A stretch of 61,930 nucleotides of DNA, filler included, from Hausera hauseri (Eukaryota), in the NCBI GenBank assembly GCA_046269625.1. It is 12 parts of 12 records of this genome, joined end to end, with 100 filler letters (N's around TTAATTAATTAA, not from the genome) between each part and the next. Parts side by side here need not be neighbours in the genome. Positions count along the whole stretch, not along the records: positions 4,860 to 8,963 come from JBJURY010759762.1; 11 more parts are not named here. One strand, 5' to 3'. A program made the position numbers and the translations under genes. The notes beneath the pieces are model-generated. The model was not told where the DNA came from, ran no database searches, and saw only the letters and a list, made by a program, of their open reading frames with translations. Positions within the stretch are counted from its first letter, which is position 1. Each line of letters opens with the position of its first letter. This document shows, piece after piece, positions 20 to 57,310 of the stretch.

Positions 20-1290
20 TTGATCATTGTACGCATTAAAATGACAGAACCAGAAACGAGATATTTTGCTAAATCTGTTTCGTATACATTGAAATATTTA
101 CATTCGAATAAAATCATTCACCACAATATCAAACTAGAAAATGTTTTTCTTAATGAGTCCACGATGGGGAAAGTTGGTGATTTCGGTTTGTTAGTTAAAC
201 TGAAACCAAGCATTGGGAGAATTCTTATGAAATGTGGTACGCCGAATTATATTGCTCCGGGAACGCTGAGCAATTTATCTCATTCATATAAAGTTGATAG
301 GTGGGCATTAGGATGTATAATGTACGTGCTCCTGGTTGGCAAACCTCCATTTGAATACCATACTCAACATGCGACTTTTGAAAAAATCAAAAATAACAAT
401 TACCAAACCTCTTGTACAGTTAGTATGGAAGCCGAAAATGTTATAAATTTATTAAATAAAGACGATAAGTTACGTCCGAATGCCTACGAATTACTTCACA
501 AACCTTTTTTGTAAAAAGTTTACTCCAAAATGTTTGCCAATCAATTGTTTAGGAACAGTTCCACGACTCGATAATATATCTCGCAACAGTAATCCACCAA
601 TCGCCCTTCACAAGATTCCATGTTCATCTGAAACTATGCGGTCATATCTAGAAATTCTTAGCGAACAATTGAAAGAGTTGATTTCAAACTCAAAACTACT
701 TGTTGACGAATTACAAATTAATTCAATCATGAATATAGAGAAAATCCTGAACTTATCCCAATATTTTGGAAATCGAGTTGGGTCAGTTCGTTCGGAAATT
801 ATTTTTATTACGTGTTGAATGACGCATTATCTGGTTGTTGTTTTGACGATTTAACGACATTATTGTTGATAAATAACAACATCAATGTCCAATATATCGA
901 TATCGATGGTTATGAAACCCTGCTCACACTGTTGAACGCACCTAAATATTTACAAAATAAATTGAAGACCTTTCTAACACTTCTGAAAAATTCTAAAATA
1001 TTGATAAAGATGGGTGAAGAGAAAGAAAATGTGCCAGAAGGAGATTCGATGGTAAGGTTACCGTTTTTGCAAGCGTGGTGTATTTCAAAGTTAGGAAAAG
1101 TTTTTTTCTTAGCAATAACACTTTTCAAGTAAATTTTATCGCCGAATATAAAGTCATTTTGTGTCCAAAACTCTCCGCCGTTCCCTTTATCGATCACTCG
1201 GACAATTTCAATGTATATTCATGGAACAAACTCCGGTCTTATAGAATCTTAAAATGTCTCCAGGTCAGGTTAATTTGTTGCCAAAATCAA
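20..1290 (+). pseudogene. Polo-like kinase fragment (C-terminal kinase lobe plus degenerate polo boxes), frameshifted
   Basis: IIHHNIKLENVFL (degenerate HRDLKLGN), GDFG, CGTPNYIAP, VDRWALGCIMY..LVGKPPFE. Polo-box-like GCCFDDLT..L, PFLQAW and FLSNNTFQVNF...KVILCP follow in other frames. Confidence 0.85.
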
Positions 1291-1299
1291 ATGAGCAGC

Positions 1300-3120
1300 C
1301 ACGAGGTGAACCAAACAATTCTCAATTTGAATCACACGATAACCAATCAAGTATCATGGGATAATATAAAAGAAAAGGTAAAAGACGATCAAGAAGTAAG
1401 TGATCCCATTGCATCTATAGTAGTCGATTTAAATTTTCAAAACAATGAGATTATTTTACGATTAAGAGATACGTTTGATGAAGATAAATTGAATTTTGTT
1501 GACATAGCTTTAAATTTATCTGAAAATGCATTTGGGAATGCTCGTTTTTATTTCAGCACAAAAAAGCTGTCAGTACCAAAGAACAAAATCATATGTTCGT
1601 CCGAAAAAGCTATTAAGTCAACAGTGATTAAAACTAAGCAAATGTTAAAAGACGTTCAACCCATTGCCAAAATCAATAAACTGCGCAAAGTGCATTGGTT
1701 TGAAAAGTTCGACTGGCTTAATTCCAGTGAAAATTACCTAATCGTTGGTGGAAAAGATCAACAGCAGAGTGAAATGCTGGTGAAAAGGTATCTTCGACCT
1801 GGTGATATTTACGTTCACGGTGATATTCACGGCGCGTCAACTGTTATTGTTAAAAATCACAATTATCCTAATAAACCCGGTATGCCTCTAATGACATTGA
1901 CCGAAGCTGGTTACGCATCAGTTGTATATAGCAGTTCATGGGAGTCCAAAGTAGCCTCTGGAGCATGGTGGGTATGTCACGATTAGGTAATCAAGACGGC
2001 CCCTATCGGTGAATACCTAACGACCGGTGCTTTCATAGTCCGTCGAAAAAAGAATTATCTGCCGGTGACTTCACCAGTTTTGGGGTTTGCAAACCTATTC
2101 AAATTATCTCATGAATCGGTCAGTAATCATATTAACGATAGACGTGTAAGACTCATTGAAACCACCTTAAAAACGTTGGAGGAAAATGTTGATGATTTCG
2201 AAGAGGTTTCAGAATCTGAATCATCGAGTGATAGTAAAGACGCTGCAGCAGTGTATGAATTTCCCGATATGAAACTTCAAATAAATTTAAAAGACACCCC
2301 AATCATTCAAGCCGTTGAAAGTTACGACTTCACAGATCAAAGCCGACATAAATGTTTCAGCAATTGAAAAGAAAAAGTTTAAAAAATCGAAATTGAAAGG
2401 CGACGAGTTGCAGGTAATTGATGAAAACAAAAAACAGGATAGTGACGTATCTGACGTTGAATCAAACGATGCACCACCAACAATCACTGCCAGTGAATCC
2501 AATTTTAGTCAGTCGTCAGAAAATAAGCAACCGTTAAGTAAGCATCAAAAAAAAATAAATTGAATAAAATTCAGAAGAAATACAAAGACCAGGATGATGA
2601 AGATCGTCAAATCAGAGTGGCAATTTTGCAGTGTAAAAATCCTTATCAGGAAGATGAACATTTAAAGCACTTGACAAAAAATTAAATTCGAAAGCAAGCT
2701 GAAGACCTTAAGAAGAAAAGAGCAGGAGAAAAGGCAGCAGCAGCAGCTGCAGCCAGACAGATACAGAAGCTCCTACAGAAAATTACGGAGAAGGTTAAAA
2801 ATCAGCTGAGTGACGATGAAGACCGCCACGAAGAACATATTGCCACTGATCTGTCCATGGTAAATACACTCACTTGCATGCCTGTTGTTGAAGATGAATT
2901 ATTGTTTGCCGCACTATACCAAACCATCCGAGGCTATAAATTTAAATTGAAAATGATACCCGGTGCCTGTAAACGTGACAAAGCTGGCGAAACTATTCCG
3001 TTTAATTTCACCAATGATAAAACGGCATCGATTCCGAAAAAAGAATTGATAAAAGAATTAAAAGACCAAGATATTACTAGAAATTTTCCGGATCGTGTAA
3101 AAATATACGCTCCAAATGTC
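1300..3120 (+). pseudogene. NEMF: NEMF/Rqc2 C-terminal two-thirds (NFACT-R and NFACT-C), with stops and frameshifts
   Basis: KVHWFEKFDWLNSSENYLIVGGKDQQQSEMLVKRYLRPGDIYVHGDIHGAS; AWWV; KKYKDQDDEDR; [12 protein letters not shown]...[10 protein letters not shown]. Confidence 0.9.
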
Positions 3121-3540
3121 AACAAAGAAAGAATTTATGCATTTGAACGAGTATTTTTGGGTATAATAATAATCATGGGTTCGAATTATGTTGTTGATAA
3201 GAAAGAATGCTTTTGTGAGAAAAGCATCCGAAGAACAAACGTGATGGTGGGAAGGTGTGTACAGGCCATCGAAGATGTGCCGTGTGGTAATAATCGCGAT
3301 CTTGTTGATGTTGATCAATCCTTGGTTAAAACTGAGACAATAACCATTCATCACCAAGTATATAACCTTCGAGTTATGAAATTCAGTGTGAGTTCAGTTA
3401 TTCGATCCGCTGTTGAACATAAAAATCCCGCTAATTTACCGAAATTAGTTAAGGGTTTAAAACTATTAGCTAAATTAGATCCAATAGTTCAAGGTAATAT
3501 GAAAGAATCCGAATAAAGTGCCATGGCTGGTGCTGGCGAA
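3121..3540 (+). pseudogene. Elongation factor 2 internal fragment (domain II-III), fused in frame to the NEMF tail
   Basis: [75 protein letters not shown]. Confidence 0.9.
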
Positions 3541-4859: not shown

Positions 4860-5240
4860 GTTTCGGCGGTTGTTGTTGTATCAGTGTCTGAATAGCGTCA
4901 GCAATCTCTTTACCGGATTTAGATTTCACGGCAATTTCACGTGCAAAACGACTAAACACATCAACACATGTCAGCACGTACCGATACCCATCGTTGATGA
5001 TGGCGTACGGAATCATTTCCATCAGATACATTTGCCATACGTTATTTACACCGGCTTGTTTATACCGGTTTGTTTAGTCTGTATGCTAACTGTTTCCCGA
5101 GCCAACGTTGGGTCTGTTTCCGAATCTGTTTGACAGTCTTTGCCAGTTTGTCGACGCCGGTATATCCGACGGGATGACGTGGGTCGAACCGCACGTCGCC
5201 CATCGTTGCTGTCGGTGATATCGTTTTTGTTAGCATTACA
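4860..5240 (-). pseudogene. Polinton integrase, N-terminal part (truncated by the contig end)
   Basis: FDPRHPVGYTGVDKL...WL..QLAY.LNKP; WQM(Y/D)LMEM..YA..NDGYRYVLTCVDVFSRFA..IAVKSKSG.EIA. Confidence 0.88.
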
Positions 5241-5347
5241 ACAATTAAAACGAAATGTATGTAAAAGATTCGGTAAACTGGGGCAAAATGCTGAAAAACA
5301 TGCACTCATATCACAGAATCATCATATACGTACCGTCATTGTTCATA

Positions 5348-5670
5348 CTATGCTGTTGCAGAACCAAAGATTGTACCCAGTAATGATGTGACAATCGGTA
5401 GAATTGCACAAAGAAATCCGCCGTCTTGCTGGTACATGACCTCTCGTTTCATTCGGTTACTACGGGCGTTGGCAAGGAAAATGAGTCGTTTTCGATAATT
5501 CAGCAAATTCCGCTTTCCACTACCAATGTCAACGTGACCCACAACGATATTATATAAAATTTCCATCAAATCATCTACTACAAATTGCAGGAATAATAGT
5601 AGTATGTTTCGCTTATGTCTCGTAGGTGCCGTGAGCAAAGAAATAAAGTACGACTAACTACGTTTGAATC
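5348..5670 (-). CDS. Small Polinton protein with a C-terminal GG-FL amphipathic tail (cupiennin-like/pVI-like)
   Basis: EILYNIVVGHV...KREVMYQQDGGFLCAILPIVTSLLGTIFG, lying between the ATPase and integrase. Confidence 0.6.
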
Positions 5671-5899
5671 CCATTTTTGACGTATTGATGTTGATGAGAC
5701 GTAGTTGTTTATAACCGTTGCCTCTGAGATGGTAATTTGCGTCTAGTTGTTCTAAGCACAGAACTGATTAATCGCTTGACTGTAGCGGTGGTTCGTTCTG
5801 ATACACGATTCTTGCCGCCGGACACCCGCTTGATATGTTTACGCTTTACAATTGTTTGTTGGAAATTCTTCATTTTATCACAAGAGTGTCGTCGATTTT

Positions 5900-6494
5900 C
5901 GAATTTGGTTATAGACACATACAACCTTCTGATTAAAAATTTCTGTTCGTACACGCATGCGGTTTGTGCGGAGCATCATGATATGCATCTATCAAGTAGG
6001 CTCGGTTGTGAGGAAATGCTTGTCGTGCAAGATAATCAATGATAGTCTGATCACGGGGATTTTTGAACAACACCAAATAGTGTACGTTTATATTTCTTAT
6101 TCGATGCTGTCCGCCCTGATGGAACATGTTTTGCGTAACGAAAATATCCGTAACGCCACGGTGCCGTGCAATCTTCGTGAACAAGTTGTTGAAGTCAGAT
6201 TGTTTCGGAGCTTCCTGAAATAAATCGTCAATGACAATAACATCACAGTTGTGTAATCTCTCTGACCAGTTCTCATAAAATCAATCAATTACCGTTATCA
6301 ATTTCAGTTTACAAAATTCCCGATGTGTCAGACAAGACCCACCATCATCACCAACACTCTGATGCCAGTATATGTGATTGTACCGCGGTGAATTGAACAT
6401 GTTACGGTAGTTCTGCAATAGATTACACAAACTATATTTTGCCACTTCCATTGGGGTCTACAATCTGGAAAATGGCATCATTCTGCAGCTTCAT
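5900..6494 (-). pseudogene. A32/FtsK-like packaging ATPase of a Polinton, disrupted
   Basis: Degenerate Walker A IVDPNGSGK near the ATG at 6494; IVIDDL Walker B; FTK..RHRG..DIFVTQN.F; NVHYLVLFKNPRD...I.YLARQ. Confidence 0.85.
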
Positions 6495-6595
6495 TTAATA
6501 ATAGTAATAATAATAATGCAACCTTTCCTCACCACATGATTTATTTATAATCGTGTTACACGCATGTAAATAGCTATAGTATAAATACTGTTTCC

Positions 6596-7072
6596 ATAAT
6601 ATTAGCTAACATCAACTATTGCGGACATGTTACCGAGTGTGACATTAACACACTACCTTTTAATCAATAAAAGCCGAGGCATTATATCTTCAAATGTCTA
6701 CTAGATTTTACATGCATCATATTTCAATCAGGAAAGTGTCGTATTATGGGTTTTCGCAAACCAGTCACAGTTGATAAACTACTACCATTCGGGATTGTCA
6801 TTGACCAAATTCAATCAATAACGGTAACGACTCAGTTAGACTACCACCAAACAATCAATCTGTAAAAATTAACAATGGCCCCTGCTGAATGTACATGTAA
6901 ACCCGAACTGTTTCCTGCGCTGAGACTAACATTGTTTCGCCCACTTTGTGTCAGTGTGTTTAGCAGTGGAAAAACTGTTGTACTCGGTATTCGTACAGTG
7001 GACTATGAACTGATTATTAGTCAAAGTAAAAATCACATAAATGTTTTAGTGAATCAAAACAACAAACTATAA
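6596..7072 (+). pseudogene. TATA-binding-protein-like gene (two TBP repeats) with two in-frame stops
   Basis: One frame reads ANINY...CIIFQSGKCRIMG (repeat 1), then IQSITVT...INL*KL...KPELFPAL...VFSSGKTVVLG (repeat 2). These match the TBP motifs YEPELFPGL and IF.SGK.V..G. Confidence 0.75.
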
Positions 7073-7811
7073 ATACTATTCCTATGCTTATTTAGACATT
7101 ACTGCCATGGAAGACGACGAAAACAACGAAATGATTCTACTCAATGATGCCAATGATGAAAGTTCAAATTAGTCGTGGTTGCTTGGCTACAAAAAGCACA
7201 ATTCTAATAGAAAACTGCTGGAACTACCTATTCGACAATTAGAAAAACCAGGTGATTGCCTGCTCAGAAAGCAGCAGCAGCAGCAAAGCCGACGTTAAAA
7301 AGGCAAAATAAAATTATTGTAATACGTAAACGAAAATCAAAACCGTCGTGCGAAACACAAATATTTTTACCGAAACGAATTTTTCGCAAGAACAAAATGC
7401 ATTTTCTACAAGCGCCCGTACTGATTTCGTTGAATGATCCCGTGTCGCTATGCACACCCAAGTACAGCTATCGTGCAAAAACGGCTTTGGATGAAAATTA
7501 AACGTGGATTTAAAGTTGAACGAAACGATCGTGGAACAGCAATCTGTCGATTTACTGGCGCAGAAAACGAAATTGTTTAATTTTATCGGTCACGAAATGT
7601 CTCATGTACCACATGATAATAGTTTAAAGTGTCGACTAAATATTGAATTGCAAGGATACAAGGAAAAAGCCTGTGTCAAAAACCCGATTGGCGTGTAGCT
7701 GATGTATATTTTAATTATCAATAAATTTTGTTTTACCATTCTTCTTCTTCTTTCATCAACCCAATTAACGTGTATAAATATACCTGTAATTTTAATATTG
7801 GAATAAGAATA

Positions 7812-8291
7812 ATGATAATGAATGATATAAGTATTATCTTAATAGACGAAAATGCCTTTGTACCGCGACATGTTACGGCAAACAGTGCAGGCTACGATGT
7901 GTTTGTCAATGTCAATATGAAAATTCCGGACTGCACAATCAAATGCGTAACGACTGGGATTCAGTTGGCCATTCCAACGGGTTATTACGGCCAACTGATA
8001 TCGAAAATCGGACTGGCAAAACTCGGATTAACGGTTGTGGGCGGTGTTATTGATTCGGACTTTTGTGGTGAAATTAAAGTGCTGCTGGAAAACCAATCCG
8101 GCAAACTGTATGATTTTTCGAGAGGCAGTGCAATCGCACAAATCGTTTTTCTTTGCTATGAAAAGGCGGAATTCAGTATAATGTCACCGGAACAATGGAG
8201 ATTGTTTTACCTTAATGAATCGACAACAATAACACGAAATGAACGGAAAGAATTTGGCTTTGGTGATATGGACAAGACCGCCTATGTTTAA
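7812..8291 (+). CDS. dUTPase (trimeric type); open frame but motifs 2 and 5 are degenerate
   Basis: SAGYDV, TGIQLAIPTGYYG, GLTVVGGVIDSDFCGEIKVLLEN, AIAQIV, ER..FGFG. Confidence 0.92.
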   Translation: MIMNDISIILIDENAFVPRHVTANSAGYDVFVNVNMKIPDCTIKCVTTGIQLAIPTGYYGQLISKIGLAKLGLTVVGGVIDSDFCGEIKVLLENQSGKLYDFSRGSAIAQIVFLCYEKAEFSIMSPEQWRLFYLNESTTITRNERKEFGFGDMDKTAYV

Positions 8292-8365
8292 TTATTGTGA
8301 TATTAATAACTGTTAGTTGCTTTGCTTGTGTTATAAACAAAAAATGATTTTGTACATGATAAGTA

Positions 8366-8860
8366 ATGTCGACAGGATTTATAAATATTGAAGCTTTGAA
8401 AAATGATAATGCCCGGTGCCTGATAAACGAATTATGCATTATGGATGTCGGTAACATTTTCGAACCGCTTGTGTACATATTCAAATACTCTATTGTGTTG
8501 AAAGGCCTGACGGAAAAATTGAAAATTACAAACGGATTTCTCTTTTGACATCGTCACGGACTACATTGGTACGTAAGGAATTCAATTTTCTGTGTTACAT
8601 GTATTATAGGAGAAATTTGTGATCGTTTTGACATTGAAAATACAATATTTTACATTAAAGATCAAAATAGCAGACAAAAGTTTACACAACTCCATTCACA
8701 GTTTCCCGAGTTGCGAATGACAACGTATTCAACATCAGCATTAAACAGCTCGCTGACGATGGTAGCTGACAACATCCGATGTCCGTATCGTGATCATGGA
8801 ACGCATTGTGCTTACTAAAAATGTCTACGGCTTTGTATTGACTATATTTCATGCAAATAA
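8366..8860 (+). pseudogene. DEDD-type exonuclease-like Polinton accessory gene, disrupted
   Basis: FINIEA...INELCI (ExoI-like), HGLHW, and a C-terminal Cys/His cluster ending HCA; stops present. Confidence 0.5.
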
Positions 8861-10559
8861 ATAAATGTATTTCTTTGTTTCTTTTTTCTTTCCGTAAATA
8901 AGTTACGTTGTATTGGTCAGTTGAATAATTCAAAAACTATACACGCGTGTAGGAAATAATATTNNNNNNNNNNNNNNNNNNNNNNNNNNNNNNNNNNNNN
9001 NNNNNNNTTAATTAATTAANNNNNNNNNNNNNNNNNNNNNNNNNNNNNNNNNNNNNNNNNNNNTGAACAAATCGATGGCACGGGAGTTCGCAATGATGGA
9101 TAGTCACAAGGAACAGACTGGTCGTTTGGTGAAGAATTAATTTTCAAATTTCTAAGATGTGTCGTAGACTTTGGATCGAATGTTGTCGATGAATTGTTCG
9201 AATTACCAACTCCCATTATTAAAGAATTCGATCGAATATCATTCAAAATTCCAGTTCGTAAACTAACACCATTGTAATTCGTTAAGTGATTAGAATAAGG
9301 CAACGTGATTACACAGCAAGGAAAACTTTTTATATACAAAATAGGTTTGTTACCAACATGAAATGTTCATAATTTTTTATTCGATTTCAAAACTTTTTTA
9401 CACCGGTTCTGCATACCAATATTTAAACACCTGCTTTAATAAAATTTCTTATATACAAATCATCCATAGGATGAATGTGGGCACCACATTACTCCCCGTG
9501 GCAAGGTTGGTACTGCCGGGAGGGACGCACCAAAGGTCTTCTGGTAACCAGACTTCTGAATCCTGATGATTGATCATATTTCCGTTATACACCGATTTGT
9601 TCTGTTGCAACTGAAGTCATGATGTGAATAACGAATGGGCAAACTCGGATTCTTTTTGATTCGCTATAATCTTTTTAGCATTACTCGGTATTCGACAATC
9701 AATACATGAAACACTCGTCGAATTCAAATTCCGTTTAACAAACGAGGTGGGTAAGCAGGAATTGTTACTGGTAGGATATTTTACCTCAACGGATGGTATT
9801 TTTGCGTCCAAATTCGACTCAACTGCTCTGGAAGACGGAATGTTACTCAGCTGTTCAAGAGATATCTTGTTGTTATTATGATAATTCAACGTATTGTCCG
9901 GATCCAGCGAACTTTTCAAATTGGTTTTATGGTCACAATTTGATGAAAAACATACGTTACATTTAGGCTTAATAGATCCATCGCCATTTGTTGTCGTGAG
10001 CAAATGCTCTGAGAAGTTGTTCGAACAATCGTCGATTTTTTTCATTTTATTATGTGCTCGATCAAATGACGAATTGATATCATCACAATCTGATTCCCGA
10101 GAACGTTTGTGGGATTCGCGATAATGCAAATAGTTTGAGTAGCTTGTTTTTTCTGAATCATGTGATGATTTAGATTTTTCGGTATTGGTCGAATCGACAG
10201 AAGTAACACTAGTCATGCTCGGTGCATAGTCGATGGAAAAATAAAGCAATTTCTGAATTTACCCGAGACGTAGAAATGGTACGTAAAAGTCTGTTTGATG
10301 TGTTTCGACTATTAGAGAATTGGTCTCTCCTGGTTCCACCGGCTGATGCAAAACGATTGATCCTAATGGGTCCGTGATTATTAAAAAATGTTGGACTTCT
10401 GCCCGTTGTACAGCGACTGTGTACAGATGTGGGCTTCTGACACCAATGTTAATATCAGTCATTTTGGTTTCACGACATATAAAATTCAAATTTCAATGTA
10501 GAGGCGATAACTTTTTTTTCAAAATAAAAATTTGTTGGGCTTCTTTAAAAAACAAAGGG

Positions 10560-14990: not shown

Positions 14991-15329
14991 ATGGCATGGA
15001 CAATAATATATAGGAAAAATGAGGAAGAGACATTGTTAATAAAAGGAATATTAAAAAAATATTTGCCGGTCGAAAAGTACACAATGATAAATCTCACCTC
15101 ATCGTACCTCTTATTGAATGACGGCAATACTTTCGAAACAACTGCCAAACCAGAAAGGTCATTTGGATTATAAAATCGACTTCCGAGACCTAAGAAGTCT
15201 AGCAAAACCACCCAAATTTCCATAATGACTAGAAGGTTCTTTTGTAGGTTTTTCCATTGTAGGTTCTTTTTCGTAATTTTATCAGAAATGATCTTCAGAC
15301 TTCTTATTAAAGTTGTGTAATGCTTTTCA

Positions 15330-15720
15330 AGATCGTATTTCTTCGTGATTTGTTGTATAATTTGCATTGTTTTCTTCTGGTACATGTCTGGAACATTCGA
15401 CAAAGGACTTCCACCGTTTCGAATATTTATCTTTCACATCCTCGGGAAATAACTGTTTGATTACTGGAAGATTTATATCAATAGGAATTCTCGATGTTAC
15501 TGAACACGATTCCATAAGAACTGTCGCCATACTTGTTAAACATCCGTCCATAATTTTCGATTTGTTGACAGAGAAAATGAAATTTGGATTTTTGATTATA
15601 TTTACCCGAAATCGTAGTACAAAACTATTACTTTTCCACAAATACAGATTAACTTCATCGGTAATTGGAAGAAATTTTGCAATGTCATCGAAAAGTTCTA
15701 AAATAAAATAAACTGGTGTT
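15330..15720 (-). pseudogene. Plexin cytoplasmic RasGAP C-terminal fragment
   Basis: YFILELFDD.A...WKSNSFVLRFRVNIIKNPNFIF.V.K...DGCL..MA...MESCS matches plexin WKSN.LPLRFWVN.IKNP.FVFD...DACL...FMDSCS. Confidence 0.82.
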
Positions 15721-17559
15721 AAATAAGATTCTTTTGACACAGGAAATTGAGAATTGGGAGATGAAGATTTTTCTATAAATTGAGATGATGCATTTAACTC
15801 GCCACTAATTGAATTGAACAAAGAATTTGACGAGTGTTTGACATCCTCTGGTTTCCTTTTCAAACTGACTGTACAATTTTTATTGGTAACTGCTGGGGTC
15901 TTAAATTGTTTTTCGTCTGGAAACAAACATTTAAGTTTGATTATTCTGTCATGGTCAAGAGACTACGTCTCTAAGAGAATTATTTTGTGATAGACAATTT
16001 GGAATTGAATACCGCCTCGCAGGCATCTCATTAGAATTGTTATCATTATTGTAATTTGGGTCATGAGCATAATATGCTGATCTGATTAAACCGTCACCGG
16101 ACCTGGCCAAAATAAATGAAAGCTTTTCTGTTTGGTGACAAGACTCCATTTTCTTTTGATTAAGTTTTAAAAGGAAATCTGATTTTGCAATACGAGAATT
16201 TAACATATATTTTGATTCTTTTTCGATGTGATGATTAGATGGTTTTTGAATTTCCGTTGGTTGTTCTTCTTTGTCTTCATGTAGAACCTGTAACTGATAA
16301 GGATTCAAAGTAACTTCGTTTGTTAATCTCTGATTTGATTTCAAAAAACTACCATTAGGTTGAATTGTTGCTCTTTAATGTGAGGACGACTGAGATTTCC
16401 GTGGAACGATAGCAGATGAAAGACTTTGTGAAAAACTTTGTCGACGATTTTCAACATGATTAGAAAAAGCCTTCGAAATTGTGTTAGTACTACTATTGGA
16501 TGGCATTCCCCTAACGTGACGAGATGGCTTATTCTTTAAAGCCAGAGTAGCTTTAATGTTGTTCTTTTGGTTGAACAAGAATTTTTTAATATATTCTCGT
16601 AGGTTCTAAAGAAAACATAATATATAAAATAGGATGAACATTTATAGTAACTCTACAATATCAAAATTTTTTATTGCAGATGGAACAACTTTTGTACAGC
16701 CAACAAAATTCTCAAAGAGATCTAAAATGCGCGATGACTAAGTATAAATCTATATATTTTCTGACAACACACAGTCCAACTGGTTAAAATGTCTGCCCAC
16801 TAAAATGTCCAACTCCTGGTTGGTTTTAGTGATCGATTCGCATTATTATGGGGAAAATTGTTAATCAGACTGATCTCTTGTAAAGTACGGTACAGAAAAT
16901 TACAAAGCATGAAGCCTGGCTCCTCTCCTCTTGTTGTTGCTGGTAAAGCAGACTTTCTTTTCGGGGAAGAAGATGAGGCCGGAGGCATGCTCAATCTGGC
17001 AAAGAGGGGTTAAATAGTCATCCAGCTTGACTTCCTCGCCCTCTTCAGGTTTGCAGTTGGGCATCATGTAGGATTCCAGTTCCAAGTTGCCATCGTGAGT
17101 CTCAATAATTATCACCTGCAAATTTTACAAGAAGTTAACATTTTGAAGTGTTATGATTTAAACTGAGGCAGAGGTTTACAATTTTTGTGTTTTTTTTAAA
17201 TCTTGCATTACACAGTCAACGTTAGGGCCTCGGGAATTTTATCCATGGAACGCCAAGGCAGTGAGGCTGGCTATTCGGCCTTTGAATTGCGATATATTCT
17301 AAAGGGTCGGAAACGAGTACAACTTCGTGACAAATTTAACTTAGAAGCCCAGCCTCCCGGTNNNNNNNNNNNNNNNNNNNNNNNNNNNNNNNNNNNNNNN
17401 NNNNNTTAATTAATTAANNNNNNNNNNNNNNNNNNNNNNNNNNNNNNNNNNNNNNNNNNNNATATCAGAAAATCTAACATCGATGACATCATTGAAAGAA
17501 AATGTTTATCTCCAACGACACCACGACCATAAATAAAATGTCAAATTCAATATGAAAAT

Positions 17560-18230: not shown

Positions 18231-18803
18231 CCATGAAAATGTACTATATAGGCACAAAATCAATATTTCGACTTAAACAAAATGTACATTTAAAGCCCAG
18301 TGAAGCGAAAATCAATAAATGTAATATCGGGGCTGGATAGGAATTCATGTACGCCGTATCGGAATGTGATGTTAGATATTCGAATTCGAGCTTACATGTC
18401 GAATACTTAGCTATTCAAACTCGAAAACTCGGTCAAGCATGCATTATTCGAAGAATCTAATGACGTCATTCGATTTCCCATGGTCGAAAACCTTAAATTT
18501 GGCACCACCATATGTTTAATTTAATTGGTGCATTAAAACAAAAGCGCATTAAAACCAATCAATAAGCGAGGCAGTACGTAGTGATATGGCAATATTTTTC
18601 ATTATTTCCAAAATCACTTTAATGAATGGTGAGTTTTTTTTAATTGTGTTCCTCAAATAATTGGTTGATTTTAGATATGCAAACTTTACAGCGAATGTTT
18701 GGCTCAAGTCCACGAGCCGGAAAATTGCCACCGTGTTATGAAGAAGTACTTTGGCCATATGTACAACAGGGTTTAGTATTGTATATGCCCTACATGTAAG
18801 GTA

Positions 18804-21800
18804 GTGTACCAAACCAATTATGAAGACTTTTACAATGACCGTAAACAGCACTTGATTTCCTTCACCAAGTCGAAAAAACAAATATTCAGTACCAATATGC
18901 CAATAACGACTTTCGTACCAAAGGAAAATCAAAGATGCAGTCCATATGTATATTGCACATGTGCAATACACAACCATCAGATTTGCCTCAATACCATGAG
19001 GTGCTATTATGGATACAAATTCAATAGAGTCCTCTATTATATTTGCCCTAAATTTGAGGCTATATGTGATGGAAAATATACTCAGTTTTACAACGATCAT
19101 ATTGCCCATTTGACAGATTTTAATTCAAAGCCAAGGAAGATCATATTTAATGAGCAGCATCCTGCTTTGGCTGCACAGCCAGTTTTACAGCCTGCTTTAG
19201 CAGCAAGGCCTGATGCAAGACCAAAACGCCTATCAGAAATAGCAGCAGATGCTTCATCAAAAAGCCAAAGACAGCAACCAGTTGATGCAGCTGCACTGAA
19301 GAGCAAAGTGCGGCGATACTTCGTGACAGCAGTCGGGCAGACATTGCTCAATGATTTCCTAAATTATTCAAGGCAGGATGCAGCATGAATTTTCCACGAC
19401 AAATTCTTGGAGCTGAAGGCCTTAAGGTGAACTTTAAATTAAAAGCCACCTTCGCCATTGTCAAAGGAGAGCTGTCTAATAGAGCCTTCAAAACAAAGAA
19501 CAGGCTACTATTGAAATCATTTAACATTAAGGATTTTATTACAGAGGACTATGCAAGGCTCATCCCTGAAGCCGAAGAGAGCCAGGACAAGAAGTGCGGT
19601 TGGACTTTAGCAACAATAAAGGGGTTACTTGTGCATGTACACAAGTATTCTCCCATGAGAGGCAGGTCCTACATACCGTTTCATGAATGGATAGTTAAGA
19701 AAAGGCATGTGTCAATGTCCGTAATAATGACAACATGTGTTTCATATATGCCATGTTATCAAAACTAGTCGAGGATCAACATAATTGTTCCAGAGTTTGG
19801 ATGTATAACAAAGTGCAGCACACATACGACTTCAGCTGTATTTCAATCCTGCCGAGCCTAGATGAAGTCGTGAAATTTGAAAGCGTAAACAACATCTCAA
19901 TCAACATCTTTGGATTGGAAGAGGACAAATTTTATTCACTATATGTATTCAAGGAGGTACTGGGGGATCATAGGGATCTACTCCTGCTAGATGATGGAGA
20001 AACGAGGCATTTCATTTGGATTAAGAATTTTGAGCGCCCCCTAGGATCCAAAATATGCAAGCATAATTCAAGGCTCAAAATATGCAAGACATGCTTTACC
20101 TATTTTAATGGAGATACAGCCGCAGAAAAGCTGCTGGAGCAAAATACTTACGGTAGTACAAACTATTGCATCGCCAAGGAGGATTACCTGGAATTCAAGG
20201 AGTTCGAGAAGATGCAGAAGGTGCCAATTATCGTCTATTGTGATTTTGAGGCCATCCTCAGCCCCGTTCATAACTGCAGTCCTAATCCCTAACATAGCCT
20301 CACAACGGCATAAAAATATCATAAACTCTCATCATATTGGATGTATGTCAAAGGATTGGACAGTGAACTATTTTTATTCAAAGGGCCAGACGCAGCAAAA
20401 CATTTTATGACGAGATTCGAAGACATGGCTAATAGGCTTGAAAACATGCTTCAGCAGTATAAGGATAAAATGAGCATGTCGAAGCAGCAAGAAGATAAAT
20501 AACGTAAGGCAACAACATGTAACTTGTGCGACACGTCCTTCACCAAGAAAAATCATAAAGTCAGGGATCATTGCCATTTTACAGGCAAATATCGAGGTGC
20601 AGCATGCAACAACTGCAACTTACGCTGCAAAACATGAACACATGTGCATGTGGTGTTCCACAACCTCAGTGGCTATGATTCCCACTTCATTGTTCGAGAA
20701 ATTGGCAGTATTGAAGGAAACATTAATGTCATCCCCAACAGCGAGAAGCATATCACTTTCACTAAGCATGTTGGTAAAATCCGATTTCGATTCATAGACA
20801 GCTTCCGCTTCATGAGCTTGTCACTGGGTAGTTTAGTGAAGAACGCCTCTGCAGAAGAACTCAAGGAGACGAAGCGGTTCTTCTCCACTAGCTTACGACT
20901 AGATAATATCATGGGAACACTGGATGAGACCTCATTACCGCCCAAAGATGGCTTTTATAGCCAGTTGTCGGACTGTGATATCAGTAATGAGGATTACCAG
21001 CATGCCCATAACGTCTGGCAAGCATTCGAATACCGGACAATAGGGGAATACAGCGACATATACCTCAAGATGGATGTGCTGCAGCTGACAGATGTCTTTG
21101 AGAGTTTTAGGAATGTTACAATGAAGAGCAATGCATTGGATCCGGCTTATTTCTTTACGACTCCAGGGATGAGCTGGACAGCTATGCTGAAATATACTGG
21201 TATTAGGCTGCAGATCATCAAGGATTACGACATGATCCTTATGATCGAGAGAGGCATTAGAGGCGGGATATGCCAGGTCATTTATCGGTATAGTGAGGCC
21301 AATAAGAAGTATATGACCCAATATGATCCATCCAAGGAACCCTCATATATATCATACCTGGATGCCAACAACTTGTATTTATGGGCAATGAGCGCCCCAT
21401 TGCCATATGATAATTTCAAGTGGGTCGTGAATCCTGAAAACATCCCTATATTGGACCTGGATCCCACTGGAGATACAAACTACATACTGGAGGTGGATAT
21501 GGAATATTCGGCTTCCATTCACGCAAGGCATCAACAGCTGCCTTTCATCCCTGAGCGCCAGCCTCCGCCCCATGGAAAGCAGAGAAAACTGCTGTGTCAT
21601 CTTGGTAATAGGGAAAGTTATGTAGTCCACTACATTAATCTCCAGCAAGCAGTTAGACATACACTACGTATTACCAAGATCCATAGAGTCCTGCAGTTCA
21701 AACAGTCCATGTGGCTGCAGTCATACATAAATCCCAATACAAAGTTGCGGACTAATGCCAAGAACGACTTTGAAAAGGACCAGTTCAAGCTTTACAACAA

Positions 21801-22459
21801 CTCGGTCTTTGGCAAGACGATGAAGAATATCCGTAACAGGATCAACATCGAGCTAATATGTAACTGGAAGCGAGCAAAAAAGCTTATTTCCAAGCCTAAC
21901 TCCTATAGCAGCACCATATATACGGAAAACTTGGTAGGCATCCATATGCTAAAAACATCCTTGGTATTCATCAAGCCCATATATGTGGGTATGGCAATCC
22001 TCGACCCGTCAAAGACCCAAATGTATCAATTCCATTAAAATATAATGGTCCCCAAGTTCAAGTCCATGCAGCTGCTGTATATGGATACTGATAGTTTCAT
22101 CTATCAGATCCATACAGATGATATGTATAAGGACTTTGCCCAATTGGCTCAACACATGGATACCTCGGACTATCCAAAGGATCATCCAAATTATTCAATT
22201 GCCAATAAGAAAGTTCTTGAGAAATTCAAAGACGAGGTGAATGGGGCAATATTATCGAGATTTGTGGCTCTCAGATCTAAAATTTATGCCACTCACATAT
22301 GTGGTCAAGTAAAGAAGCGGGCAAAAGGGGTTCAAAGGGCTGTCTTAGCCAAGAAGATCAGTTTTCAGGACTATGTGACAGTTCTGCAGGAGCAGACTTA
22401 CATCATATCGGAAATTAAAAGGATCCAATCTAGCGATCATAACATACAAACTGTATTCT
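18804..22459 (+). pseudogene. Protein-primed family B DNA polymerase (pPolB) of a Polinton with N-terminal region and endonuclease-VII-like insert; frameshifted and truncated by the contig end
   Basis: VYCDFEAIL ExoI; CNLC..VRDHCHFTGKYRGAACNNCN insert; HNLSGYDSHF; DSFRFM; YLDANNLY motif A; KLYNNSVFGK motif B; YMDTDS motif C. Confidence 0.95.
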
Positions 22460-22559: not shown

Positions 22560-22740
22560 CTCGAGGAATTAACTATAGGAATAGATATAGAGTAGACTTT
22601 GAAAAGAATGACTCTACTGAGGCATATTATTGGTCCATAATACTGAACATGGGACTTTTGAATAAAAATATAAATAATGGCATCACCATGGATGACTTCA
22701 AAGAAAATTACCCCTTCTTTACATTTGTTCGAGCACCTGG
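22560..22740 (+). pseudogene. Polinton major capsid protein C-terminal fragment
   Basis: AYYWSIILNMGLLNKNINNGITMDDFKENYPFFTFV.AP shares NMGLLNKN(I/V)NNGI(T/S)MD with the capsid fragment at 56790-57310. Confidence 0.7.
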
Positions 22741-38154: not shown

Positions 38155-38560
38155 GCACTATTATTTCCGAGCGCGGTGGGATAATAGCATCATCTATCAG
38201 TGAGACGGCCTCTTCGTATTTCTTCTCATTAAAATATCTAAGTTGACCTGTCTTAACGTCAATGTACACATCGTCTAATTGATGTAATACGTCGCATCCT
38301 AATAATATTTCGTTGGTTAGGTTCTCGGCTACTCTTATAGTATGCTTTATCACTTGACCACCAATTTTAATCTCGGCCTTTAAAACCATCTTTATCTCTT
38401 CTTCCATTCCAAACGCTCCGACATTAATTAAGGTTTCTTCGAGCCTTTGTAGCATACTTTTTAATTCTTTGGGTATTTGACTCCTTCTCATGATTGTAGT
38501 TGTTGAGCCAGTGTCTATTAAGTCAATTAATGGATGCCCATTTACTTCTTTTTCTATCTC
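38155..38560 (-). CDS. Retropepsin aspartic protease (partial polyprotein)
   Basis: VNGHPLIDLIDTGSTTTIM ... IRVAENLTNEILLGCDVL. Confidence 0.88.
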
Positions 38561-38968
38561 TGGTCTCGTATATGATTGAATTTCACTTTTAGAACTCACC
38601 TTACATGTAGTTTCATGTTCCTTTTGTATAAGATTTTTATCATAATCTTGTTTTATTCTTAGGATTTGATACGTTGGATACATTACCCCATGTCTTACAT
38701 ACTGGGGGGCTGAGGGGTTTATTGGCAGGTGGTCATTATAAACTTGCCTGTGGTACTCATCTGCGAGATTCAACTGAGGTAAGTCGGTAACTAGCTTCCT
38801 TCGATACTTTTGATTGTGATACTTCAATGATAATCTTTTTAATACTTGGATATATCTATTACTTCTGAGTCTCGTGTCTACATTGTCCTCGTCGCCTCCT
38901 CCATTCAAAGTTCTGTAGGGCGTATAATCGTCAGCTTTACCACTTCCTTCGTTAGTTATTTTCTTTTT

Positions 38969-40827
38969 TTACTTCGCGTCATGATTTGCTAGAAAACAAC
39001 TAGCTACGGCCGGTATTACGGCTATAAGGATTTTCCACGAACAACCCACTGCTGCATGTATTCCATATGCCTTACCTAGTGCTGTAAATATTGTTCGTAA
39101 GGCACTAATACTAAAATATATTGCCAAGAATCCCGATGCTGCCTGTCCGAAGTATAAAAATTTGCCCCACATTTTTTCCATCACATTTCTTGTAACCTTC
39201 TTCAAATAATCTTTTCCCATTAGATTTTCCCAATGTGGAGAACCTTCCCCGTCCCACATTACCTTTCTGGTTAGTTCTGTTATTATTCGTTGTCTCTGTT
39301 GAGGAAATAATAACATTCTTCGATAATCTTCTAAATTCTGTTGCGTATAAATGCCTCCTTGTAAAATGCCAGTTAGCGGTTCGAATTTTTGGTTCCTTTG
39401 TAAGTTGATCAAGCTTAAAGTTTCCGGTTTTGCTACTTCTTCTCGTTTTGGCATTCTAAACCACTTATCATTTATCTTGAACATAGGTGACATATTAAAC
39501 GTACAATTGTCGAGTTGCGTCGGTCTTGCTTTGGCGTCTAGTAATATACGGGTTACTGGTATTACGTATCGAGGTTCCATATTGTAAATCACTGGTAACT
39601 CTGAGGTACATTCTTCCGATTCTCTAATCGCTACCTCTACCTTTTTGCATTCAATCGTTATTAACACTTCCCCCATTACTTTTCCAATTACTCCGTCTCC
39701 AAAAGGCATAACCGGGGCCACCATGTCTGGGTTTGTTATCACCAATGCCATTTTATTTCGTATTATTTCGAAATTCAATTTACATTCGTTTAATATTATT
39801 TCTCTATATAAATTTCTTATTTCTTGTCGGACATAGTTAATCAAATAGTCTATTTTATTATCAAAATATTGTGTTACTTTGATAACTTTCTTATCTATTT
39901 TTGTTTTTGCTTCTGCTACCTCTCTCGATGAGAGATATAGTCCTTTATAATTAGTCATAAACATTTCTTCATTGCATTTATTAATTGTCCCTTTGATCTT
40001 AAATCGCATCATCTCTTCAGGGTTCTGTGAATATACTATTGTTTCTACTTCTGTCATTTTTACTTCTTTGACCCCTTCTCTATAAGTGGCTGTTTCTTTT
40101 TCAGCCTTTTTCCCCACTGTCTTATTAAACTTACCTTCTTTTAACAGTGTCGGATGACATCGGCTCGAAGATATTTCTTAAGTCATTTTAGATTCTCCTG
40201 TATCGCACTCTCCACTTTCGTATTCGCATTCATTCATTATTGTCATGAGTCTCGTTTGGGAATCGAACAATCCTTCGTATTCTTTTAACTGTACCTGATA
40301 ATCTTTGATTGCTACCGTCCTTGGAGCTATTGTTCCCACGACATCGTAATCTACTCCCTTACACGTACCTTCCATGGTTTTGTCTATTCTCCCCGCTCGA
40401 AAAATCCTAGTATACTTTATCTTTCCTCTTACGGCTGGTATCTGAGCATTCTGTACTGTTATGACCCCGATTTTAAAAGCATCTTGACATTCAGCCCGCG
40501 ATATTATTATTGGCTCAAAAGTGGTCGTGGGTTCAATAATTGCTGAATTTCCTGAGTAATATGCGCAATTAAATAAAAAAACGACTTCTTTACATAACAT
40601 TCTCGTATCTTAAATTATCTCGTATCCGACTCCTGGTATACACAATACCGATGACCGCTGGTTGTTGTTAATTGTTCTGGGTCCGCTTCAGGGCATTTTT
40701 CTAAATCTATTAGTGAATACTTTTGTCCTTCTTTTGGCTTTGAGCAATCATAAGCCACCATTCCCATGGCTTTAGGCATGCATAGTGATGCTATAAGTAA
40801 TATCTGTAATATTTCCATAAACGACAT
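38969..40827 (-). pseudogene. Chuvirus-like (gB-related, class III-type) envelope glycoprotein with signal-like N-terminus and C-terminal TM; two stops and one frameshift
   Basis: Hydrophobic ILQILLIASLC, then MVAYDCS...YSLIDLEKC; GEVLITIECKKVEV.IR...ECTSELPV; PVTRIL; C...SPMFKIND.W; GGIYTQ..L..YR..LLFP; WGKFLYFG...G.LAIY TM. This is the motif series I recall for Chuviridae G and its endogenous copies. Confidence 0.8.
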
Positions 40828-43689
40828 GCCTCCGAGACCATGCTTATTAATACCAGGTTGGGTTGCAGTTGGTCTCTCTGGTATTTCTCTTTCCGATCTC
40901 AACCTGCCATTCATTAAACTAGGTATCCATCTTTCCCTGCATTGTACCCAGTTTTCTAAAGTATCACGTAGAATTTTAACAGTGGTTTTTATATTTCGTT
41001 CAATTTCCTCCAGATTCTGTGTCTGATAATTTGTTACTATTACTTTATATATCAGATAAGCTATCGCCGTAACAACTTTTTCTCTAGTGATCCCTGTAGC
41101 AAACATCTTCTCTAATATATCCTGTTCATGTAGTTCGTTAATTCGTTCCTCATTAATGTTTTCGTAAAATTGTCTGCTAATTCTCAGCATGCTATTCCGT
41201 AGCATCTGAAATAACTCATTGGGAATAGTTATCTGCATATCAAATAATCCGAATGACGTATGAAGTTTGGCTAATAATGTTCTTAACAATGGATCTATAT
41301 CTACAGATTCTGGTGTCGTATCTGTTCCTGCCAATAATAGTCGTCGTACAATTTCCTCGTTTCTATCCTTTTTATTTCTAATGTCACTTATCTTTGTCCC
41401 TTTTGGTCTTCCTTTTCTTCGAGCTTCTGTCTGTACCGTAACATCTTGATTATCAGTGAAAAATGGTCCTTCCTTTTCCTGAGGCTCTACCTCTCTTATT
41501 ATTTCAGCTATCGTTTCTTCTGCTCTTACATCGGGGTGTATTGCGGTTATAGTGATCGGATTATAATTTCCGCTTCGACACCCAATTCTTAATAACTGGT
41601 CATAACCGTATAATGTTCTGCCGAAGAAATTCAACCCATAGACATTTTCTTTATAAAATGGCTCCAGTTCCTCCATCTTTTCTCGTAACGTTAGCACATC
41701 GTCCGTCTCATTCATTCTAATAACTCTTATGTCCTGATTTCCTTCCTTTAGTGTTATTCTTACCGCCTCATTTCGCTCCCTTTCACCTTCTGCTGTTTTA
41801 GCTAATATTGTCCTTGCTATCTCTCGTACTGGACTACTGTCATGAGCTAACAGTAATAATTGGAATAGGATCTCATTTACTTTAGCTATTGCTACTTTAT
41901 TATCTATTAGTTTTAATATTGTAGTGGTGGCCTGATTGACATCCCTTATATTTTCGGGGTCGATGGCCACTACTGCCTGTATGATATCGTCTTCAGCATC
42001 CAAATCTACTTCTATGTCGTGTATCACCTGTTCTATGACGGTTTCGTCAAATGTTTTTGCAGGTGCTTTTTCTTCTTCTGATGTTAACTCCTCAGGGTTA
42101 TTTTTCTTCCGTCCCTTTTTCTTTTCCGTATCACTTCTTTCAGTAGAGGCTTCTCTTGATTCCGCTTCTATAATTTTCTTATTGCCTTTCTTTTTCCTGG
42201 GCTTTCCGCCCTTTTGTTTTTCTTCCAATACATAAATACCATTTTCTCTTAATCTTTTTTGTTGGGTCTTATAATCTTTCAACTCCATTGCTAGCTGAGT
42301 CCTCATTCGTTGCGTTAATACACTATTAACGTAATTTACATTTTCTTTCTTTTTATCTTTATACTCTTCGTGTTCGTCATCCTCCCTTTCATCTTTATAG
42401 GAAGACTCATCCGATGTTGCTGAGGTGTAATCTTGCTTATTTTCCTTCTTTTTGTCCTTCGATCTGGTTTCTCGCTTGCGTGACCTACAAACCTTGGCTA
42501 TATGGCCATACTTGTTACAATTGAAACATTTTAACCTGCCCTCTGAATCTATACTTGGCAACAAACGGCCATCTTTAGTGGGATACTTCTTTGACTTTTC
42601 CCCATGGTTCTTTAGTTTGAATCTTACTTTTTTTCCACATCTGACTCAGCCTCTGTAGCTGACGTTTGTGAGGGGCTTCGGTTAATATCGTATCTCTGGT
42701 ATTGTTGTGTACTATTATTTCTTCGTTTATAATTGTTTGTGCTATCTTTTGACTTGGTCCATTTACATAACTCGGCATCCCGTTCGGCTTTTCTGGCCTT
42801 CCTGATTGCTTCTTGAAACGTGGAAGGGTCGGCTTGTAATATGNNNNNNNNNNNNNNNNNNNNNNNNNNNNNNNNNNNNNNNNNNNNTTAATTAATTAAN
42901 NNNNNNNNNNNNNNNNNNNNNNNNNNNNNNNNNNNNNNNNNNNAATCCCGTATGTTATTTCGTCATTGACTGACAAGACTTTGTCTTCTAAGCAGAGTGC
43001 GTTTTTATCGTAACATCGACCAAATTCCAAAACTGAAACTTATGGAGAAATCCAAATGGGGGATATTTAACCCAAATTCGATTATAAATTTATCTGAAGA
43101 AATTAAGAAAAAGAAAAGTGTCATTAAACGTCTATGTAATCAGAAATTGAAAGCAAAATGTGAAATAAAACCCATATTGAAAATCGCTGTGAATCTAAGG
43201 AATCGGATCATCAAAGTACCAACATCACCCCATACCTCGCTATATTATGCTCTATATGTAAATGTTATTTTCACGCACAAACAGAATGTTAAAAATGAAA
43301 TTATTGTTGCAACTGTCAATCTACTACAGATGATCGAAGAAGTTGAAGAATTTCTTGAGTGGACCCACAGAATTGTGAATACAACTAGAAGTGTTATATG
43401 TTCAGAATCGGAAAATTTTAGTGAGAGGTCAGTGAAGATTATATTTGAAAAATTATTAGTCACTGTTAATCAAATTATTCAGGAAAATAACAAAACTGTC
43501 CGTGAGCTTTTAGAAAGCGATGTTGCAGAAAAGTTGTGTTTTCTGGAAGAATTGCGTAAAGAACGTCTATCAAATTTACGGCAACAAAATGAAATTGATG
43601 GTCTCAAACGTCTCCAGCCAAATGACATGCAACATACGAAATGTTTATATTGTGGAAAACCGAATGCTATTGCGCAATTTCCATCAGAA

Positions 43690-46600: not shown

Positions 46601-47046
46601 AGGTCCAATATGGAATATTTTGAGAGGACTATCGAGGTGGAGCCAGGTCGGTTGATCGTGAAATACAGTGGAGACGCCACGGACAGCAATATTCGGGATA
46701 ATTGTTGTCCGATGGATCCACGTATTACGGTCAATGATGATGAACGATCATCAGCTGTTGTTCCAGCAATCAACAAACAATTGTATTCAGGTGGACTGAC
46801 TGCACATGTGGTTGTTGAGGATGGAGACAGTGGTGTTACCATAATTAAACGAATTGCAGATGACATGGCCATAGGAGGTAGCGTATTGACTGACAATCCA
46901 TTAGTAATTCTGTTGTAGATTACAAAAGGATCAGCTTATTTACCATGGATAACAGGCCAGTTGATAGATCGACATACTTCACCGTTGTTAGAGATGCAGT
47001 GAACATTGGCAAAACACCAATTAAGTCACTGAGATATGATGTCTAG
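43690..47046 (+). CDS. LARS1: Cytosolic leucyl-tRNA synthetase; one frameshift at the A-run 43989-43996, predicted 41-nt intron 46878-46918, native N-terminus missing
   Basis: [70 protein letters not shown] editing domain, KMSKS; removing the GT..AG intron opens a last exon ending RYDV*. Confidence 0.93.
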
Positions 47047-56341: not shown

Positions 56342-56722
56342 TCATACAAGTGTTTGTAATATAAGCCACAATGAACAGTAATGTCCACATAATACGGTCA
56401 ATGGATGTTAATAATGGAGTCGATTATATTCAGGACGATGATGACGTGATTGTCTTTCAGTTTGAGAAACTAACGATGAGAAATAATAAAATCCGAGCGG
56501 GTCTAATACTCTGACGACGGTCGGATGTACTTACACAGCAATCCTATGTTATTCCGGTAACGACGATGTGTGTGTATTGACAATAACACCACTACAACTA
56601 GTTTATAGTAGGTCACTCGGCACACGGTTCAGTAAAAACACATCGCGGAATTTCGCACCCAAGAGCAGTTTTTCGTAGTGACTGAGCTCATTGGAGCTAA
56701 ACGTAAAACGTGATTTAAGCAT
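56342..56722 (-). pseudogene. Polinton adenain-like cysteine protease, disrupted
   Basis: FRDVF....P...VIVNT..S..P.*H.IAV...LDPLG, then YN...Y*...CGHYC around the catalytic Cys. Confidence 0.75.
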
Positions 56723-56789
56723 AACAATAATAATAAATTATTTTATGGTACTGAGAAAAAGAGAGATATCCGATTTTATTTACACATTG

Positions 56790-57310
56790 ACGGTTCCGTT
56801 TTTTGTTATTTCTACTTTCGCTTCAAACACACCTTAAAGTACATAACAGTAGACTCTTCCAGCGCTTTGGCAAAGTGAACCTCCAGTGTCAGGTTTCCTT
56901 GATGAGGTAGTTGAGACTGCTCAACGTCATAATCAGGAGCCAGAACAAATCCATTGATATTCCATTGTTGACGTTTTTGTTCAGCAATCCCATATTACGC
57001 ACGATAGATTGCATATGTATGCAAATATAATCATAGGTCTCAAAATTTTTCTTATACGTTTAAACGAAATCCGTATTTTTGCCCAAACTGATATAATTCA
57101 CATTGCTACAGGTAAACGTTTCTGACTCAATGGAATAATTACCGCTTTGTTTAGTAGTCGAGTGAAATGTTACAAGCACAAATTTCGGCATTCGCGTATC
57201 GCCAAACAGCGCGTCCTTATAAAACGATGTCGAACCTTTGGATGTGGTGCGAAACACGAGTTCTGTGCGTCTTAATGGATAACAGGCATTTTGTGTTTCC
57301 AAGCCCATGA
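56790..57310 (-). pseudogene. Polinton major capsid protein, C-terminal half, disrupted
   Basis: YPLRRTE...T.SKGSTS..KDALFG...PKFV; NMGLLNKNVNNGISMD; FVLAPD...GNLTLEVHFAKAL; lies directly upstream of the protease. Confidence 0.78.

Follow-up and report, generated by a model that had tools for sequence, protein, structure and literature searches.

A compact TBP-like protein family encoded by Polinton-type elements, with a candidate late-promoter word, as seen from a decayed copy in Hausera hauseri

Introduction

The closest described systems to the locus presented here are cellular TATA-binding protein (TBP) and its viral counterparts. Cellular TBP (PF00352; 7egb_P, 1ytb, 1mp9) is a two-lobed saddle, in which a pair of glutamates on the C-lobe stirrup contacts TFIIB and a basic patch of the N-lobe contacts TFIIA, TAF1, Mot1 and Brf (excerpts of PMC7221094). 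In the same excerpts, the nucleocytovirus TBPs studied are said to have diverged at their sites for TFIIB and to be frequently accompanied by a virus-encoded TFIIB. The beta- and gammaherpesviruses encode TBP mimics (KSHV ORF24, EBV BcRF1) that serve TATT late promoters, ORF24 being a large multidomain protein that acts in a six-protein complex, is devoid of the glutamates for TFIIB and makes direct contact with Pol II (excerpts of PMC12529657). Polintons, Mavericks and adintoviruses (excerpts of PMC8502044 and 10.1101/697771) share their hallmark gene set with the relatives of the element studied here. The legend of Fig. 5 in Starrett et al. (2021; PMC8502044), on MELD viruses, carries a TBP label, and one supplement file of that paper mentions neither TBP nor TATA. 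The literature searched, the coverage of which takes in few subscription journals, yielded no paper specifically on TBPs of Polintons or on a promoter word that they might use. The locus bears on how animal Polintons time the expression of their capsid genes and on whether these elements have a regulated viral phase.

The locus lies in a stretch of 61,930 nt from Hausera hauseri (GCA_046269625.1), hereafter the window, which consists of short pieces of 12 records with filler at the joints (N44-TTAATTAATTAA-N44). A first-pass annotation of this DNA had proposed that a Polinton encodes a compact TBP-like gene at 6596..7072 (+). The fold, family and context described below support an element-encoded TBP homologue, but this particular copy is a pseudogene.

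Results

Gene Content of the Element Fragment

The TBP-like gene sits on the piece 4860-8963 (JBJURY010759762.1), the only part of the window that is contiguous with it. Along this piece the order is integrase (-), core-like gene (-), ATPase (-), TBP-like gene (+), small neighbour gene (+), dUTPase (+) and a conserved gene (+), and the first five of these are broken. The retroviral-type integrase (4860..5203, -; Pfam rve, 5.7e-06; 41–56% identity to relatives) is frameshifted and truncated at the piece end. It is followed by a small conserved element gene with one stop (5348..5674, -; 35–47% identity to relatives), for which a Pfam search gave no match and which we take to be core-protein-like; the word YATAAACR (TATAAACA) stands at 5706..5713 (-), 39 nt ahead of its ATG. 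The packaging ATPase (5933..6495, -; 5' end approximate) contains stops and frame changes and is head-to-head with the TBP-like gene. By tblastn it is 55–71% identical to the ATPases of relatives, themselves matching Pox_A32, and in the ATPase tree it falls inside the TBP-bearing clade. Both the integrase and the packaging ATPase are of the Polinton/Maverick type.

On the other side, the first-pass annotation had the TBP-like gene lying between the packaging ATPase and the dUTPase, which is right as to the flanks but passes over a broken gene at 7376..7689 (+) that also precedes the dUTPase. This small neighbour gene is in two frames with an undefined 5' end (profile matches at E 2e-4 and 0.07), and gene order across loci identifies its family as the common neighbour of the TBP-like gene. 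The dUTPase (7725..8291, +; Pfam 5.9e-20) is open over 188 codons and has no counterpart in the 65 related loci. The last gene, a conserved element gene of ∼155 aa (8366..8851, +; about 32% identical to the members in L021 and L034), encodes a product that matches unnamed clusters, arthropod for the most part. It is preceded by YATAAACR (TATAAACA) at 8332..8339 (+), 34 nt ahead of the ATG, and no difference in this word is listed among 620 contigs aligned to 8280-8420. A search for terminal inverted repeats in four relatives, all of them incomplete, yielded no such pair, and the window piece is an internal fragment of 4.1 kb.

A pPolB at about 18.5–22.5 kb was not assigned to this element because it lies on a different piece, and it was also left out because its long match to the family pPolBs reaches 29–32% identity, compared with 57% between L011 and L021. 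This gene (18549-22459, +) probably belongs to another Polinton lineage. Other Polinton remnants on separate pieces are a putative major capsid gene at 22562-22738 (+) and capsid and protease genes at 56360-57308 (-).

Reading Frame, Fold and Decay of the Window Copy

The TBP-like gene occupies a single intron-free frame of 159 codons, with internal TAA codons at 6668 and 6863, as noted in the first-pass annotation (two stops, no introns), and a terminal TAA at 7070. Homology to intact relatives runs from 6599, and since no in-frame ATG occurs between the upstream stop at 6548 and codon 51, the copy has no start codon where its relatives begin. For the matches and the model given next the protein was translated with X at both internal stops. 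Pfam TBP matches it at E 8e-12, over the C-terminal repeat only. The AlphaFold model (pLDDT 91.8, from a 116-row alignment) gave 44 PDB matches at E ≤ 0.001, and among the matches listed all are TBP-containing entries, at 18–25% identity. Alignment against human TBP 159-337 (VIA-align) covers both lobes, with Z 13.1, rmsd 2.8 over 151 residues and 20% identity, the next-best fold having Z 6.8, so the match to the TBP fold is clear. In the window model and in that of an intact relative the first lobe is a strand skeleton from which both helices are missing; the two half-repeats that had been read in one frame of about 160 codons are therefore there as two lobes, but the first consists of strands only. 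The divergence, judged at first sight to go far beyond that of a host TBP, does so at about 20% identity to cellular TBP and is a trait of the lineage, not of decay.

The window copy is a dead pseudogene within a decayed element. It deviates at 4 of 31 near-invariant columns, compared with 0–3 in 115 intact members, and its end branch measures 0.32, compared with 0.07–0.08 in its sisters; in three public runs most of the related copies do not share its second stop. In runs X1-X3, 29,271, 1,423 and 419 contigs match 4860-8963 at a likeness of at least 80%, in all 30 bins, and their largest likeness class is 90–95%, which points to a diverged multi-copy family in three organisms.

The TBP-Like Family

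Intact reading frames are present in other copies, the closest intact proteins being about 70% identical to the window copy. Among 2491 candidates, 603 match the family profile, 120 of these being listed; with clustering at 50% identity, 59 clusters reach E ≤ 1e-30 with it. Intact members are 144–170 aa long. A total of 65 metagenome loci were gathered, of which 60 belong to the family, the 26–28% matches L061-L065 being excluded from the family counts. ATPase, integrase, pPolB, protease or putative capsid genes are carried by 28 of these 60 loci, and the remaining 32 are 1.0–5.6 kb long. Taken together, L011, L021, L034, L047 and L051 contain pPolB, protease and major and minor capsid genes, and the genes of the relatives include pPolB, a chromodomain integrase, an A32-like ATPase, an adenain protease, a PLA2-like gene and a putative capsid gene, as well as further small genes and zinc-finger and KilA-N proteins. 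Pfam and NCBIfam gave zero matches for the genes named capsid and core, and these names are our assumption from size and position. No relatives turned up in IMG/VR, whether the query was the TBP-like protein or its alignment, the alignment for the ATPase or for the capsid, or P0281. Five Maverick-type contigs (L084-L088) come from genome bins of prokaryotes, two of which carry the label of a tubeworm endosymbiont, and are probably host contamination.

Values of dN/dS are 0.08–0.42 in 17 of 24 pairs, the other seven being saturated and the pairs not independent, and show that the family is under purifying selection. The small neighbour gene family has no informative PDB or PHROG match, and its two subgroups align weakly (E 8e-4, probability 25%); it may resemble single-strand-binding proteins. 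One protein, P0140, is a 357-aa fusion of a TBP-like domain with the ∼190-aa gene that follows the TBP-like gene in L028, L031, L033, L043 and L044. Fusion of this type to a small neighbour gene is the only longer form found among 7998 scored candidates, and may indicate a possible partner or be a read-through artefact in one record.

Kept and Lost Protein Surfaces

Residues were counted in 115 intact members and mapped onto TBP by alignment and with Table 1 of PMC12529657. Like cellular TBP, the family has the glutamate pair that contacts TFIIB (first Glu in 110 members and Asp in the other five, second Glu in all 115), three of the four DNA-kinking phenylalanines (115/115 each), the first central asparagine (112/115) and the C-lobe proline (103/115). 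Unlike cellular TBP, it is shorter in having no tail, is borne by a mobile element, carries mostly lysine at the first Phe site (Lys 88, Ser 12, Arg 6, Pro 5 of 115) and has serine in place of the second central asparagine in 113 of 115 members. With this Asn replaced and one Phe lost, DNA binding by the family may be weak.

The median length of the lobe linker, the segment that contains N-lobe helix 2, is 19 residues, compared with 32–34 in archaeal and eukaryotic TBPs. The N-lobe helices are deleted in a compact subclade, to which the window copy belongs. A deeper subclade (L047, L048, L051, L052 and L084; 165–171 aa) retains both, and its linker segment has 27–31 residues of which 0–2 are basic, compared with 6–9 in two eukaryotic TBPs. 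The basic N-lobe helix patch of eukaryotic TBP is hence absent from the compact subclade and non-basic in the deep one, and the sequences suggest that the deeper subclade is an intermediate stage towards the compact form. The family as a whole has a two-lobed TBP fold that fails two canonical TBP features.

Phylogeny

A long branch with support separates the family from archaeal, eukaryotic and IMG/VR TBPs in both a 62-row tree and a 55-row tree (two duplicate loci dropped, one row truncated). The host stand-ins in these trees are plant- and protist-type TBPs, with no animal TBP or TRF and no labelled nucleocytovirus TBP, and the outgroup kingdom labels, except for L089-L092, are guesses from sequence. 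The window copy is nested inside the element family, and constraining it to a clade with the canonical eukaryotic TBPs, that is, with these host stand-ins, is rejected (AU p=0.00013). Constraining the whole family to a clade with eukaryotic TBPs gives p=0.48, hence no rejection, a result that carries no weight on an ancient eukaryotic origin. The family also stands apart from 13 unlabelled IMG/VR TBPs, labelled nucleocytovirus sequences being absent from the tree. In the ATPase tree the TBP-bearing elements form one clade (support 90/88, unstarred), and the co-occurrence of the TBP-like gene with YATAAACR is therefore a single evolutionary contrast.

Upstream Words

De novo word counting over 268 upstream windows yielded TATAAAC and CATAAAC; the word YATAAACR was found on the same loci later used for counting, many of which share sample prefixes. 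With positions -90..-25 scored and L057 excluded, YATAAACR stands ahead of 86 of 212 other ORFs in TBP-bearing loci (shuffles 2.5, maximum 8) and ahead of none of the 50 TBP-like ORFs (0/33 if anchored on the conserved first strand). In 22 loci with no detected TBP, which are incomplete, mostly distant and of 22–56% GC, it precedes 2 of 231 ORFs, which is chance level (shuffles 2.0). The best control among loci of this kind is L086, whose 11.8 kb hold the genes for pPolB, ATPase, integrase and protease and capsid-like genes but no TBP gene, and which has 0/9 words; L084, which came from a separate search, has a TBP gene and 3/8 words. After 90% dereplication the word precedes 11/15 ATPase, 9/9 putative major capsid, 7/7 and 4/6 core-like and 6/7 PLA2-like genes. 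The counts are 6/11 for the integrase, 3/7 and 3/5 for minor-capsid-like genes, 2/5 for the protease, 1/3 for pPolB, 2/18 for the common neighbour gene and 0/42 for the TBP-like gene. Ahead of packaging and virion genes it lies on the gene strand in 45 of 61 cases and on the opposite strand in 0, in both subclades. Position 7 of words of this type is C in 46, T in 6 and A in 2 of 54; position 1 is C in 14/48, and CATAAACR is commoner in elements of the deeper subclade (11/22 words vs 3/24).

A canonical TATA word precedes 19 of the 50 TBP-like ORFs (shuffles 4.2) and is absent within 90 nt of the other 31. The triplet TCA follows at an offset of 27–35 after 11 of 22 canonical TATAs of TBP-like ORFs (control windows 2 and 6), whereas at the same offset after late words it gives no signal (10/95; controls 7 and 13). 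In the window, canonical words precede the TBP-like gene, the ATPase and the dUTPase. The candidate ahead of the TBP-like gene, TATAAATA at 6580..6587 (+), lies 19 nt from its homologous start, a tighter spacing than in relatives, and the ATPase is likewise preceded by TATAAATA, not by YATAAACR. Over the whole window YATAAACR is not enriched (16 occurrences vs 14.4 expected), and its position alone is informative.

Discussion

With the fold, family, genomic context, purifying selection, surface pattern and two classes of upstream word established above, the shortened two-lobed TBP is likely, at a probability of roughly 60%, to be the element's own late-promoter factor, one that would use host TFIIB and Pol II in the manner of the herpesvirus TATT factor. 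The first-pass annotation had suggested either a transcription factor or a TBP decoy; of these two roles, both of which we infer, the transcription factor better fits the promoter-class pattern. Under such a scheme the TBP-like gene would be transcribed early by host TFIID and Pol II, using a canonical TATA that is followed some 30 nt later by an initiator-like TCA, and the gene product would bind YATAAACR ahead of the ATPase, capsid, core and integrase genes. The remodelled N-lobe, which we assume to be oriented towards the 3' end of the word, would face its 3' half, where C replaces A/T at position 7. The two conserved stirrup glutamates would recruit host TFIIB, and hence Pol II, and a protein lacking the basic N-lobe helix would escape control by TAF1, Mot1/BTAF1, TFIIA and Brf. 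The outcome would be an early-to-late switch run by a single gene of about 150 aa. Several points count against this mechanism. Gene and word coincide in one clade only, the control loci are incomplete and mostly distant, and the word was counted on the loci that had yielded it. Wild-type TBP has been crystallised on a similar TATA variant, DNA binding by the family may be weak, 31 of 50 TBP-like ORFs show no canonical TATA nearby, and the ATPase of the window has TATAAATA ahead of it. In addition, the C-lobe is described as facing word position 1, with its proline reported to favour T there (excerpts of PMC12529657), and C is found at that position in 14/48 words despite the proline being kept in 103/115 members.

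The analogy with the herpesvirus TBP mimics lies in canonical early promoters, a variant late TATA word and a viral TBP fold. The Polinton family differs from them in being a bare core that retains the TFIIB glutamates; at 144–170 aa this core has no ORF24-type Pol II-binding domain, and the fold similarity of BcRF1 to the TBP-like model is weak (E 4.5e-3). By analogy, then, the family would work like a herpesvirus late TBP mimic without belonging to the herpesvirus system. The family resembles nucleocytovirus TBPs in being virus-borne and two-lobed with eroded N-lobe regulator sites, and differs from them in keeping both glutamates. No TFIIB match was found among 90 scanned proteins (88 from related loci, whose elements are incomplete), and BFVD matches to the TBP-like model are at 8–19% identity. 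It is the kept contact with host TFIIB that sets the family apart from both the herpesvirus and the giant-virus TBPs.

Other explanations of the same observations have to be weighed. YATAAACR may function as a weak TATA whose reader is host TBP or some other protein of the element, with the TBP-like gene merely sharing the clade or assisting generally. By its numbering, the C(-25) variant of the TATA box would be TATAAACG. If so, host TBP can bind the YATAAACR word in a crystal, as PDB 1qn3 is by its entry title wild-type plant TBP on the C(-25) variant. In a single clade, moreover, gene and word may co-occur by inheritance, and the further small genes, zinc-finger and KilA-N proteins of these elements offer other candidate readers. 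Reading by host TBP, however, leaves unexplained why the word avoids the TBP-like gene itself (0/50), why the late word is without the TCA that canonical TATAs have, and why elements without a TBP gene have it at chance level, and we regard this explanation as unlikely, though of some substance. Somewhat less probable still is the decoy, a protein that would sequester host TFIIB or occupy host TATA boxes and so damp host transcription with no initiation of its own. It would account for TFIIB-contact glutamates that are among the best-kept residues and for a DNA face that is partly altered. However, three phenylalanines and one central asparagine of that face are nearly invariant, a decoy for Mot1 or TAF1 would depend on the very regulator-binding helix that has been lost, and a decoy predicts no element-specific promoter word.

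Two further explanations concern the window copy itself. A copy still functional through read-through, or as a domesticated single lobe, would be in keeping with the high confidence with which the read-through model folds, though that model is driven by its alignment; set against the two stops, the missing start, the four changed near-invariant columns, the long end branch, the broken neighbour genes and a second stop that most copies do not have, it is very improbable. A recent processed pseudogene of host TBP or TRF caught in the element would likewise be intron-free and broken, and the window does contain other intron-poor host-gene fragments. Unless the host has a TBP paralogue belonging to this family, this candidate was nevertheless ruled out, leaving it a negligible chance, by an identity of about 70% to the intact family vs about 20% to cellular TBP, by nesting within the element family and by the AU test (p=0.00013, in trees without animal TBP or TRF).

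Returning to the late-promoter factor, a broader proposal would be that a widespread Polinton lineage runs a one-gene early/late cascade, in which a minimal TBP of altered specificity reads YATAAACR, uses host TFIIB and Pol II, and has lost its host-regulator surface stepwise, charge before helix. This we put forward tentatively, at a little under even odds. If true, no smaller natural orthogonal pair of TBP and promoter would be known, and the cascade would be evidence for a regulated virion phase in these 'transposons'. Since both a late word and its candidate reader are defined, a single small protein and a motif of 8 bp are enough to test how capsid genes are timed, and the family can be seen as a natural deletion series of dispensable TBP surfaces. 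The window copy itself represents ordinary decay, and the interest lies in the family.

The window holds several other features of note. A retroelement-like region at 38155-42645 (-) combines a zinc knuckle, an aspartyl protease and a fusion glycoprotein of the Monjiviricetes (chuvirus) type, the glycoprotein being in three stop-bounded segments (Pfam 1.3e-67, 2e-06 and 0.001). A leucyl-tRNA synthetase gene at 42970-46918 (+) consists of two long overlapping frames (350 and 985 codons), is apparently intron-free and includes a RagD-binding domain. At 1018-3516 (+), a broken NEMF/RqcH-like gene lies between a POLO-box fragment and an EF-2-like fragment, a region that resembles a chain of captured host-gene pieces. 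Finally, a plexin cytoplasmic-domain fragment (15327-15962, -; 1.6e-24) points to an animal host.
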